From Myxococcota bacterium (lineage in GTDB: Bacteria > Myxococcota_A > UBA796 > UBA2385), in contig JAYYRS010000489.1 of assembly GCA_036126975.1 (NCBI GenBank), positions 1 through 30,358 of the forward strand: 30,358 nucleotides of DNA. Direction: 5' to 3'. Under the pieces are notes generated by a model that saw only the letters and a program-made list of their open reading frames with translations, was not told where the DNA came from and made no database searches. Shown in pieces: positions 4,462 to 19,783 of this stretch. How positions within the stretch are numbered: the stretch's first letter is position 1; the number at the start of each line of letters is the position of its first letter. Position numbers and translations under genes: made by a program.

Positions 4462-4477
4462 AGTTGCCTTCCATACG

Positions 4478-4624
4478 TCTCCCCAGGGCTTAGGGAAGCC
4501 GGTTCGAATCCGGCACGGGCCCGCCACCGTGATCGGTCAGGCTCTGTCACCAGGCCACTGGGTCGTTGACCTGGGAAGGCGACAGGGACGACGGCCGTAA
4601 GTCGGGAAACCTTCCTGGGCGAGA
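4478..4624 (+). ncRNA. Cobalamin (B12) riboswitch
   Basis: AGGGAA (4492), T-loop arm GCCGG-TTCGAAT-CCGGC, ACGG-GCCCGCCA-CCGT arm, GCCACTG...TGGGAAGGC, and 3' AAGTCGGGAAACC. Closing helix TCTCCCCAGG (4478-4487) pairs with CCTGGGCGAGA (4614-4624). Lies upstream of cbiA. Confidence 0.92.
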
Positions 4625-4867
4625 AGACCACCGGTCCTCGGGTACAGGACTGCGTCCTCCGCGTGGGTCGTGCCGGGAATCTCTGGTACGCCGCGCTCCC
4701 CGCCAGGCCGCCCACGCCTGCCGCCGGGACCCGGACCGACGCACTTCCCTCTCCGGGGCCGGTCGCCCCGAGCACCGACGCCTCGTGAACCGCAGACCCC
4801 CCATCTCCCCGCAACCGGCCGCCCCGGCCCGTCTCCTCCCCGCCCGACGGCGCGCCGAGGGCCGGTC

Positions 4868-16843: not shown

Positions 16844-16986
16844 CACCCCACCGGCACGCCCGCTTCCTGTCCCTCTCCACCGCTGCGCACCCTGCAGCCC
16901 GCCGCCAGCGGCGTGGCGGGGCCGGGCTCCGCGGCGCCCCCACGGTCCGGATGGCAAGGCCTCCAACCATTACGGCGGTCCGATGA
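16840..16986 (+). CDS. Possible 48-aa bridging mini-ORF
   Basis: GTG overlaps the upstream TGA (GTGA 16840-16843); its TGA overlaps the next ATG (ATGA 16983-16986). Arg/Ala-rich; no recognisable homology. Confidence 0.3.
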   Translation: MTPHRHARFLSLSTAAHPAARRQRRGGAGLRGAPTVRMARPPTITAVR

Positions 16987-17768
16987 AGGTGGCGCTTGTC
17001 GGTGCCGGACCCGGTGCGCCCGACCTGATCACGGTACGGGGGCTCCAGCGAATCCAGCACGCCGATGTCGTTCTGTACGACCGTCTGGTCTCTCCCGCCC
17101 TCATCGACCACGCTCCGGCCCACGCGCGTCTGGTGAATGTGGGAAAGGCGCCCGAGCGCAGGCGCTTTCCCCAGGCGGAGATCAATCGTCTGCTCGTGGA
17201 GGCAGCCCGGAGCGGCCTGCGCGTGGTCCGGCTGAAGGGGGGTGATCCCTTCGTCTTCGGTCTCGGTTCCAGCGAAGCGAGCGCGCTGGCGGACGCGAAG
17301 ATCCCATTCGATGTCGTCCCCGGGCTCACGGTTGCGGTTGCGCTTCCCGGCCTCGGAGGCGTCCCGCTGACGGTGCAGCGGATGGTCACGGCGTTCACCG
17401 TGCTGAGCGGCCACCATCCGCCCGGACATCCGGAGGCCGCGGACTTCGACCGGCTCCCGCGGAACAGCACCCTGGTCGTCCTCATGGGGCGACGCCATCT
17501 GGGCGCCATCGTCCAGCGTCTTCGCGAGACCGACTGGAGCCGGGACACACCGGTCCTGCTGGTGGCGTCGGGCACGACTGCAGAGGAGCAGACGGTGTCC
17601 ACCACCCTCGCGGACGCCGAGCACGCCGCTCGACCCCTGGGCGCACCGATGACGATGATCATCGGTGCAGGTGTCGCCTTCCGGGAACACCTCCTGCCCT
17701 GGCTGCATCGGGTCCATCCGGAAGAGCAGCCGTCCGCCTGGGGGACCGCACGGGAACCCGGCTCGTAG
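16983..17768 (+). CDS. Second SUMT-like tetrapyrrole methyltransferase with divergent catalytic motifs
   Basis: VALVGAGPGAPDLITVRG, VLYDRLV, VGK, VVRLKGGDPFVFG; but FGLGSSE replaces FGRGGEE and LTVQR replaces LTHR. Confidence 0.88.
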   Translation: MKVALVGAGPGAPDLITVRGLQRIQHADVVLYDRLVSPALIDHAPAHARLVNVGKAPERRRFPQAEINRLLVEAARSGLRVVRLKGGDPFVFGLGSSEASALADAKIPFDVVPGLTVAVALPGLGGVPLTVQRMVTAFTVLSGHHPPGHPEAADFDRLPRNSTLVVLMGRRHLGAIVQRLRETDWSRDTPVLLVASGTTAEEQTVSTTLADAEHAARPLGAPMTMIIGAGVAFREHLLPWLHRVHPEEQPSAWGTAREPGS

Positions 17769-17836
17769 ACGGGACCCGACGCCAAACCGCCGCTGACCTC
17801 GCGGCCCACAACGCTACCGCTTGTGAACCAGCCCGC

Positions 17837-17842
17837 TATACT
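17837..17842 (+). promoter_or_regulatory. -10 hexamer TATACT, leaderless-type position
   Basis: 6 nt before ATG 17849; no SD; no clear -35. Confidence 0.45.
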
Positions 17843-17848
17843 CGGGTC

Positions 17849-18604
17849 ATGCGCCCCATCCCACCCGCCTTTGCGCTCGGCTTCCTTGTCGCCAGCTGTG
17901 CTCCGTCGCCCAAGGCTCCACCTGCGGCCGATGACTCTGCACCCGCCGATGTCGCACCCGGCGATGCAGACGACGGCGGTACCGGGGACGTCCCTGCGAC
18001 CGGCGGCGGCGATGCAGGGACGAGCGGTGGAGCAGGTACGGGTTCGGGCGCGTGTACGGGTGGTTCGACCGGCAACTGTGGCGACACCGCGGGGACGACT
18101 GGCACCGGCACCGGCGCCGGTTCCGACGAGGGCGGGACAACGGGCACACCCGTGCCGGACTTCCGGCTCGCCGACCTCAACCCGAACTCGGTGCGCGCGG
18201 GCCAGGACGTCTCGCCCCGCGACTATATGGAGCAGGTCTCCGGCTGGTACTTCATCCACAGCACGTGAGGATACTGCCGTGGCCAGTTTGGCCACCTCAG
18301 CCAGATGCAGGACGAGCTTGCCGCCGAGCACCCTGACCTCCAGATCACGATCCTCGCCATCAACGAAGCAGGGTTCGAGTCTGGTAACGGCCGGGTTCCG
18401 GACGCCGGCGACCTCCCTCTCCTCCAGGACGACGCCACCGCTCGGGTCTGGTCTTCCTGGGGAGCCACCTACCGGGACGTGGTGATTCTCAACGAAGACA
18501 ACGAGCCGGTGTACGTGTTCAACCTGACGGGCCAGAGCCTCGGGGATGCCGCGAACTACGACACCCTGAAGGCCGCCTTCATTGACGCGGCGTCTACCCG
18601 GTAG
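17849..18604 (+). CDS. Probable selenoprotein: lipoprotein with Gly/Thr linker and thioredoxin/peroxiredoxin-like domain, UxxC (Sec140)
   Basis: ORFs 17849-18268 and 18305-18604 are in the same frame, separated only by TGA 18266-18268: ...GWYFIHST-U-GYCRGQFGHLSQMQDEL...ITILAIN...LPLLQD...VVILN. Lipobox LVAS-C. Confidence 0.85.
18266..18299 (+). promoter_or_regulatory. Bacterial SECIS-like hairpin
   Basis: Perfect 7-bp stem GTGGCCA (18279-18285)/TGGCCAC (18289-18295) with GTT loop, starting 10 nt after the TGA. TGAG can also pair with CTCA (18296-18299). Confidence 0.7.
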
Positions 18605-19657
18605 TCACCGGACCACGTTGAGACTCTGCTGGTCGACCACGAACCCGAAGGCAAGCTCGCGCAGGTTCCGCCCGTCGACGGTGGCGTCCCAGGGACCGTG
18701 CCCCCGGCCTTCAAGCGGGTGCATGGCGAAGGGCGCGCCCGTGGTCTCGTATGCGTCACGGAGCTTCTCGGCTTCTGTGAAGGGGACGGTCTCATCCTCG
18801 GTGCCGTGCACGATGCTCACCGGCGCGTCATATCTGTCGAACCTCGACTTCCCGTTGATCCGCTTCAGGATCTCCATGTGCGTGATGCCGCCCCAGTGAT
18901 CGATGATGGTGTGGACGTCCGCGCTCGATGACAGGTTGGTGGTCTCCAGGGTGGGGTCGTCGGCGACGCTGACATCATCGCGGAAGTCCTCGGGATTCGT
19001 CACGCCGAGCATGGTGGCGAGGTACGACCCAGCTGAACCTCCGATGGCCGTGATGTGGTCGGTGTCCAGCTGATACCGGTCGGCGTTCGCGACAAGCCAG
19101 CGGACGGCGGCCTTGGCGTCGCGCGCCGCTCCGTACATCCCCAGTGCCTGCAGACGCTGGCTCTGGCTCGCGTCACTCGCTGCGACCACGTCCATCCACG
19201 CCTGCGGCAGCGTCGCCCTGTCGGACGTGACCCGGTAGTCGATCGACACGGATACGAAACCCCGCTCCGCGAAGTACCGAGCGAACTCGACCGAGTTCTC
19301 GTTGGTCCGGGACCCCCCCGTGAAACCGCCACCATGGATCACCACGACGGCGGGCCGCCCCGGCGGCGCATCGACCGGCTCGTAGACGTCGAGGAGCAGG
19401 TCGACGATGTCATCGACCGGGCCATTCCACGCGATGTGCCGCTGCCCCTTTCCGTAGACCTCCGTGGAGACGGTCACCTCATGGGTGGACTCCGCCTGCA
19501 CGGTCGGCGAGCTTGCGTCCGCCTCGCCCAGTCCCGTGTCCTGGCCTCCGCCACTGCGGGTCCCGCAGGCGGACAGTGCCAGGACGAAAGCGAACCCGGC
19601 CAGGGCGGAACCATGTCGCGAAGGGGAGCCACTGCGAGAGCGTCGGGACATCAGCAT
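18605..19657 (-). CDS. Alpha/beta-hydrolase (carboxylesterase-type) lipoprotein
   Basis: HGGGF oxyanion motif, GGSAG nucleophile, HGTEDETVP, GHGPW; lipobox LSA-C. Confidence 0.9.
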   Translation of the reverse strand: MLMSRRSRSGSPSRHGSALAGFAFVLALSACGTRSGGGQDTGLGEADASSPTVQAESTHEVTVSTEVYGKGQRHIAWNGPVDDIVDLLLDVYEPVDAPPGRPAVVVIHGGGFTGGSRTNENSVEFARYFAERGFVSVSIDYRVTSDRATLPQAWMDVVAASDASQSQRLQALGMYGAARDAKAAVRWLVANADRYQLDTDHITAIGGSAGSYLATMLGVTNPEDFRDDVSVADDPTLETTNLSSSADVHTIIDHWGGITHMEILKRINGKSRFDRYDAPVSIVHGTEDETVPFTEAEKLRDAYETTGAPFAMHPLEGRGHGPWDATVDGRNLRELAFGFVVDQQSLNVVR

Positions 19658-19664
19658 GGGCGGC

Positions 19665-19670
19665 AGTCTA
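19665..19670 (-). promoter_or_regulatory. -10 hexamer TAGACT, leaderless-type position
   Basis: 7 nt upstream of ATG 19657 on the minus strand; no SD. Confidence 0.4.
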
Positions 19671-19783
19671 GCCCAGACCGGCCTCGGAGGTGGGCCCCCG
19701 GGGCCCGGCAGCCCGCACAGGACCCCGGTGTGCACCGATGCGGCGACGCATCTTGCGACGTGTCGCAGTACGCCACCCTCCGA

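Follow-up and report, generated by a model that had tools for sequence, protein, structure and literature searches.

Does the TGA at codon 140 of an otherwise uninterrupted reading frame from a Myxococcota bacterium specify selenocysteine (Sec), and if so, what kind of protein does the gene encode? The frame lies within a 30,358-nucleotide stretch of DNA (hereafter the window; GenBank assembly GCA_036126975.1, contig JAYYRS010000489.1), which belongs to a MAG of 662 contigs that is 68.7% complete. It opens with an ATG at 17849, closes with a TAG at 18602–18604, and has the TGA as its sole in-frame interruption. A sequence-only reading had placed this TGA at the first Cys position of a CxxC-type motif and held that standard gene callers split the gene. 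Both statements proved accurate: the surrounding peptide reads WYFIHST-U-GYCRGQFGH, with the motif HST-U-GYCR covering residues 137–144, and a plain ORF list cuts the gene into two pieces, 17849–18268 and 18305–18604. The coordinates of the features are collected in Table 1.

Table 1. Coordinates in the window of the selenoprotein gene and its parts, with the basis for each assignment.
Feature	Position	Strand	Basis
Selenoprotein gene, 251 codons plus TAG	17849..18604	+	Read through TGA codon 140; NF053656 match
Predicted lipoprotein signal peptide, lipobox V-A-S-C; Cys17 (17897–17899) predicted to be lipidated	17849..17899	+	Sequence pattern
Low-complexity Gly/Ala/Thr/Asp tether (residues 18–101)	17900..18151	+	Composition
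Thioredoxin-fold domain, NF053656 (residues 102–247)	18152..18589	+	Profile match, AlphaFold2 model, Foldseek matches
TGA, predicted Sec codon U140, first position of the U-G-Y-C redox dyad	18266..18268	+	Shared by 33 homologues at an identical column; TGC (Cys) in L042, a rare Cys form
Bacterial SECIS element	18274..18300	+	Fold; covariation; PMC13188914 criteria
TGC, Cys143, presumed resolving residue at the second position of the dyad	18275..18277	+	Invariant in alignment A2; aligns with the CcmG WCPTC Cys and the BCP peroxidatic Cys
CGG, Arg209 (domain position 110)	18473..18475	+	Invariant R110-D111 in alignment A2; thioredoxin-fold cis-proline position

For the family search, the protein was translated with Cys at the TGA. 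It matched NCBIfam NF053656.1 (redoxin_TUGYCR, "TUGYCR motif thioredoxin fold (seleno)protein"; release 20.0 of June 2026) along the whole profile (positions 1–146 of 146) with 209.4 bits and an E-value of 2.1e-62, and a six-frame search of the genome with the family model scored the same gene at 203.2 bits, against a curated cut-off of 100 bits. The Pfam models AhpC-TSA (PF00578, 16.7 bits) and Redoxin (PF08534, 15.9 bits) both stayed below their cut-offs of 26 and 26.6. With a full-domain match, the exact T-U-G-Y-C-R motif, and Sec/Cys in the same column, the window gene is an ordinary member of a known family, and nothing of substance sets it apart. NF053656 is already curated at NCBI as a (seleno)protein family and is named after the motif seen here, so the description of the gene as a "hidden" selenoprotein did not survive comparison with current annotation. 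A literature search on "TUGYCR" returned no paper naming the family, a UxxC family of Myxococcota lipoproteins was likewise not found in the literature, and NF053656 is absent from the May 2026 review of the prokaryotic selenoproteome (PMC13188914). That review describes two UxxC selenoproteins, a "Prx-like thiol:disulfide oxidoreductase" and a "Redoxin family protein," which were predicted by comparative genomics and have putative functions. They share the thioredoxin/peroxiredoxin-like fold and the UxxC motif with the protein studied here but are defined by PF00578/PF08534, whose cut-offs it does not reach.

We gathered homologous loci using genome searches with the family model; a search with the single sequence gave two loci only. 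The family scored above the cut-off in 28 of 41 related genomes, and 35 of the 36 above-cut-off matches among these relatives contained exactly one TGA. In a phylum-wide sample, the family was present in 25 of 201 genomes, nearly all from one class, with one TGA in 28 of the 32 matches and none in the remaining four. All 33 Sec forms that were read, from more than 20 genera, have the TGA at the identical column, within the context T/S/N/G-U-[G/S/A]-[Y/H/G]-C and flanked left and right by strongly conserved sequence. In L042, the one Cys form read, the codon at this column is TGC. Homologues thus carry TGA, or rarely Cys, at exactly the same site. One of the loci (L041; G040:C4, CAZEJJ010000004.1) comes from a record publicly labelled "uncultured Enterobacterales bacterium"; its GTDB order is that of the window and its kin are labelled Deltaproteobacteria, so the record looks like a mislabelled bin.

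The genome that contains the window also encodes a Sec paralogue (C647:5827–6264, + strand; locus L009:1501–1938), which scores 203 bits and contains one TGA. This copy has a lipobox, and ordinary gene callers will split it too. A distant Cys paralogue (C197:2152–2574, − strand; locus L011) falls below the cut-off at 72 bits and bears the motif P-T-C-G-H-C. It has no SECIS-like hairpin and, judged by eye, carries Trp rather than Arg or Pro at the position equivalent to the thioredoxin-fold cis-proline.

The sequence-only reading had further pointed to a perfect 7-bp hairpin that starts 10 nt after the TGA. This hairpin is present, with GTGGCCA (18279–18285) pairing to TGGCCAC (18289–18295) across the loop GTT (18286–18288), and a lower stem of 3 bp joins 18274–18276 with 18298–18300. 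Its 3-nt loop starting with G-U, 7-bp stem, and 17-nt spacing between UGA and loop are those of the bSECIS model, whose geometry criteria we took from PMC13188914. Taken alone, the hairpin could have arisen by chance, as the folding energy of a 71-nt stretch was no better than that of shuffles (z = 0.10) in DNA of 69% G+C, for which this z-score is uninformative. That the hairpin is real follows from its covariation across homologues. In the 33 Sec forms taken together, 92.6% of the cells in the 7-bp helix are paired, and five of the seven pairs show compensatory change, amounting to 20 double-change cells; none of 500 shuffles reached any of these measures. As a control, sliding the partner strand by 1–3 columns reduced pairing to 21–43%. 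The Cys forms keep few pairs, namely four of seven in L042 and three of seven in the Cys paralogue L011. Because the helix is encoded in the codons for R-[S/G]-Q-F-G-[Y/H], the paired bases force coupled residue changes in the protein: AGC/UAC specifies Ser...Tyr, and GGC/CAC specifies Gly...His, the combination found in the window gene.

These observations bear directly on the possibility that the TGA arose by nonsense mutation, reflects an error of sequencing or assembly, or marks the seam of a two-fragment pseudogene. The splitting of the gene by ordinary ORF callers and the fragmented state of the MAG would fit such a defect, but the same TGA column recurs in dozens of independent genomes with conserved sequence on either side, the SECIS covaries, and a second paralogue in the same genome has a TGA as well. 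We regard this explanation as effectively refuted.

A search of the MAG for the Sec machinery found a tRNA-Sec with anticodon TCA (57 bits), selA (464 bits), a truncated selB, and a fragment of selD of 75 aa at a contig end. The selB assignment refers to a 559-aa ORF whose best-matching family is SelB, with the match taking in the C-terminal half specific to SelB; its 213 bits lie just under the cut-off of 242 because the ORF is cut by the contig start and its N-terminus is missing. A different explanation, in which TGA is read throughout the genome as sense (Trp or Gly, code 4 or 25) without any Sec, is refuted by stop-codon usage, as TGA terminates 14 of the 23 high-GC3 ORFs in the window and is the commonest stop codon there. 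Genome-wide reassignment would also sit poorly with the single TGA in nearly every family match, with the Cys found at this column in Cys forms, and with the presence of dedicated Sec machinery. Together, the conserved TGA, the covarying SECIS, and the recovered sel genes bear out the proposal of a selenoprotein. Judged from its sequence, the gene is very probably an intact, functional member of NF053656 in which UGA140 is recoded to Sec, and its product a thioredoxin-fold lipoprotein. For annotation, this means that two short "hypothetical" ORFs in the MAG should become one selenoprotein gene and that the Sec paralogue on C647 needs the same fix. The biological gain is small, since NCBI already treats NF053656 as a family of selenoproteins.

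We considered whether the genomic neighbourhood informs on function. A tetrapyrrole methylase gene (TP_methylase, 16983–17768) lies upstream with a gap of 80 nt, and the downstream genes, on the opposite strand, encode a BD-FAE/alpha-beta hydrolase and an FG-GAP repeat protein. When the TP_methylase, the BD-FAE hydrolase lipoprotein, and the FG-GAP protein were used as tblastn queries, no match was obtained in 35 homologous loci, and all-against-all clustering of the flanking ORFs from the same loci recovered nothing recurrent besides the gene and its shadow frames. This comparison rests on flanks of roughly 1–1.5 kb; as far as these show, adjacency to the cbi operon is incidental, and a functional link is unlikely. 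The view that the gene has its own promoter found no support, as a promoter and terminator scan of 17500–18900 yielded neither a sigma-70-like site nor a terminator-like site; the gene may have an own promoter or may be co-transcribed with the cbi operon. Separately, the cbi operon, whose end lies just upstream of the gene, is preceded by a cobalamin riboswitch (RF00174, 87.7 bits) at 4469–4632 (+ strand). The convergent gene at 18605–19735 (− strand) encodes a BD-FAE/prolyl-oligopeptidase-type alpha/beta hydrolase, has a stop codon that abuts the stop of the selenoprotein gene, and specifies an N-terminus resembling a lipoprotein signal (…LALSAC…).

At the protein level, the N-terminus MRPIPPAFALGFLVAS-C17 (MRP-IPPAFALGFL-VAS-C17) bears a lipobox, recognized as a match to the pattern [LVI][ASTVI][GAS]-C, which suggests that the protein is exported and lipidated at Cys17. 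The 82 residues from 18 to 99 are dominated by Gly (25, 30%), Ala (14, 17%), Thr (13, 16%), and Asp (10, 12%). The same order, in which a lipoprotein signal peptide is followed by a low-complexity acidic/Gly/Thr/Ser linker and then the domain, is found in nearly all homologues; their linkers range from about 10 residues to more than 150 and vary widely in composition. The layout of a membrane-anchored lipoprotein on a long tether is therefore present, as predicted from the sequence, but it is the family norm rather than unusual. Compared with other NF053656 members, the window copy has a rather long tether (~84 aa), and that of the C647 paralogue is short. Two homologues have a much longer N-terminal part: in L023:1–1950 (+ strand), a run of Cys/Asp-rich repeats (CDD..D type) is fused in frame, and L037:1489–2886 (− strand) has a tether of about 150 residues of (Asp-Ala)n and an extra domain.

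An AlphaFold2 model of residues 100–251, built on 22 homologues, reached a mean pLDDT of 97.7 and upheld the earlier claim that the sequence beyond the TGA continues a thioredoxin/Prx-like fold. Helix 1 of the model begins right after U140. Foldseek searches against the PDB retrieved ResA, DsbE/CcmG-like proteins, the pneumococcal lipoprotein Etrx2, DsbF, Sco, and peroxiredoxins, and against Swiss-Prot models, ResA (TM 0.63–0.74) and the BCP/PrxQ peroxiredoxins (TM 0.67–0.71) matched about equally. The nearest folds overall are thus ResA/DsbE/CcmG and BCP/PrxQ, with TM of about 0.65–0.8. By sequence, a search of PDB chains gave marginal matches only, with E of 0.13 or worse.

To relate individual residues to these two groups, the family was aligned using hhalign with single E. 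coli sequences, which gave modest matches (probability 68–91%). On CcmG, U140 and C143 fall on C80 and C83 of WCPTC, and Arg209 falls on the Pro of GAPETFLID; the default local run ended before the cis-Pro region, which a global/low-mact run covers. For BCP, the peroxidatic Cys is matched by C143, the Thr of TxxC by U140, and the Arg of GIHRISFLID by Arg209. In the model, Arg209 directly precedes strand 111–115, the place of the thioredoxin-fold cis-proline. From the alignments and this secondary-structure position, we assign Arg209 to the cis-proline position with moderate confidence. According to PMC2757866, CMPs and thioredoxins have a cis-proline that is more conserved than the CxxC motif itself and is probably part of the polypeptide binding site, while peroxiredoxins have at this site an Arg that activates the peroxidatic Cys. 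The family would therefore join a complete thioredoxin-type dyad with a peroxiredoxin-type Arg. The invariant Arg209 is the one detail that goes beyond known annotation, and it hints at a peroxidase-like function or a non-polypeptide substrate.

The resulting protein resembles both groups without fully belonging to either. It shares with ResA, CcmG (DsbE), and TlpA (the CMP group) the fold (TM 0.7–0.8) with its inserted helix and its beta-hairpin at the N-terminus, a predicted membrane anchor in the envelope, and a dyad with CxxC spacing where helix 1 begins. Unlike these proteins, it has Sec in place of the first Cys, only marginal sequence similarity (E of about 0.1–1 to PDB sequences), and no ccm/res context, and the invariant Arg before beta-3 deprives it of the cis-proline, one of the features that define the CMP group. 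The BCP/PrxQ peroxiredoxins are alike in fold, in the Arg at the cis-Pro position, and in the alignment of Cys143 with the peroxidatic Cys. They differ in their P-x-x-x-T/S-x-x-C motif, which is absent here (the aligned residues are I-H-S-T-U-G-Y-C, with Sec at the Thr position), and in having Pro where the family has Ile/Thr/Gly; in addition, the gathering scores of PF00578 and PF08534 are not reached.

We propose a mechanism that would begin with SelB bound to the small in-CDS SECIS hairpin, 10 nt past UGA140, directing Sec insertion. The protein would be exported, lipidated at Cys17, and held in the cell envelope by the flexible Gly/Thr/Ala/Asp tether. Its catalytic unit would be U140-x-x-C143, in which Sec would attack as the nucleophile and Cys143 would form a selenenylsulfide by resolving the intermediate; re-reduction of the pair would presumably run through a DsbD/CcdA-type membrane electron route. 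DsbD_TM genes occur in all 22 high-quality relatives. No DsbD/CcdA was found in the window's own MAG, which we do not read as absence because that assembly is 69% complete and every high-quality relative has one. As a side observation, one relative encodes a DsbD_TM match of 66 bits with one in-frame TGA (G029:C63:7467–8099, + strand), which could be a membrane electron transporter containing Sec, a pair of genes, or a break. Regarding the substrate of the selenoprotein, the invariant Arg at the cis-proline site leads us to lean toward a peroxide, a sulfenate, or another small oxidised species rather than a classical polypeptide disulfide.

Much of the same evidence could instead describe a classical TlpA/ResA/CcmG-type envelope protein-disulfide reductase, serving for instance in the maturation of cytochrome c or copper proteins, with Sec simply standing in for the nucleophilic Cys. 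Foldseek ranks extracytoplasmic thiol-disulfide oxidoreductases best, among them ResA, DsbE, and Etrx2; the U-x-x-C dyad is complete; envelope anchoring is predicted; hhalign relates the family to CcmG with 90% probability; and a DsbD_TM donor is common in relatives. This explanation is possible but doubtful, as the cis-proline of the polypeptide binding site (PMC2757866) has given way to an invariant Arg, and no ccm/res or cytochrome oxidase gene is linked to the family in the 35 loci.

Loss of the cis-proline could also have enabled a metal- or metalloid-binding role of the Sco-like or Mer-like kind, with His138, Sec140, and Cys143 as ligands. Conservation of a His at U-3 reaches at least 90% in the homologue alignment, Sco1/ScoI and ORF3 of a Streptomyces mer operon are among the structural matches (TM of about 0.66–0.71), and PMC2757866, citing its reference 59, relates that the cis-proline reportedly keeps CxxC from binding metal. 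We consider such a role improbable, as ResA and BCP outrank the Sco matches, the spacing of the dyad is CxxC rather than the CxxxC of Sco, no conserved metal-handling neighbour was found, and the cobalamin genes are not conserved beside homologues. On balance, we infer that a peroxidase-like or small-substrate role stands slightly ahead of a TlpA-like reductase, with metal binding a distant third.

Together, these findings place the gene in a family that is already recognized and direct attention to a single residue. The Arg at the cis-proline position suggests a predicted function that is peroxidase-like rather than TlpA-like. Tentatively, the TUGYCR family may represent a surviving intermediate stage that links CcmG/TlpA-type reductases to peroxiredoxins, acting as an envelope selenoperoxidase or small-substrate reductase whose SECIS shapes the very motif that names it. 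If this is true, the U-x-x-C dyad would have been kept while the cis-proline had already been exchanged for a peroxiredoxin-type Arg, in an enzyme that is lipid-anchored.
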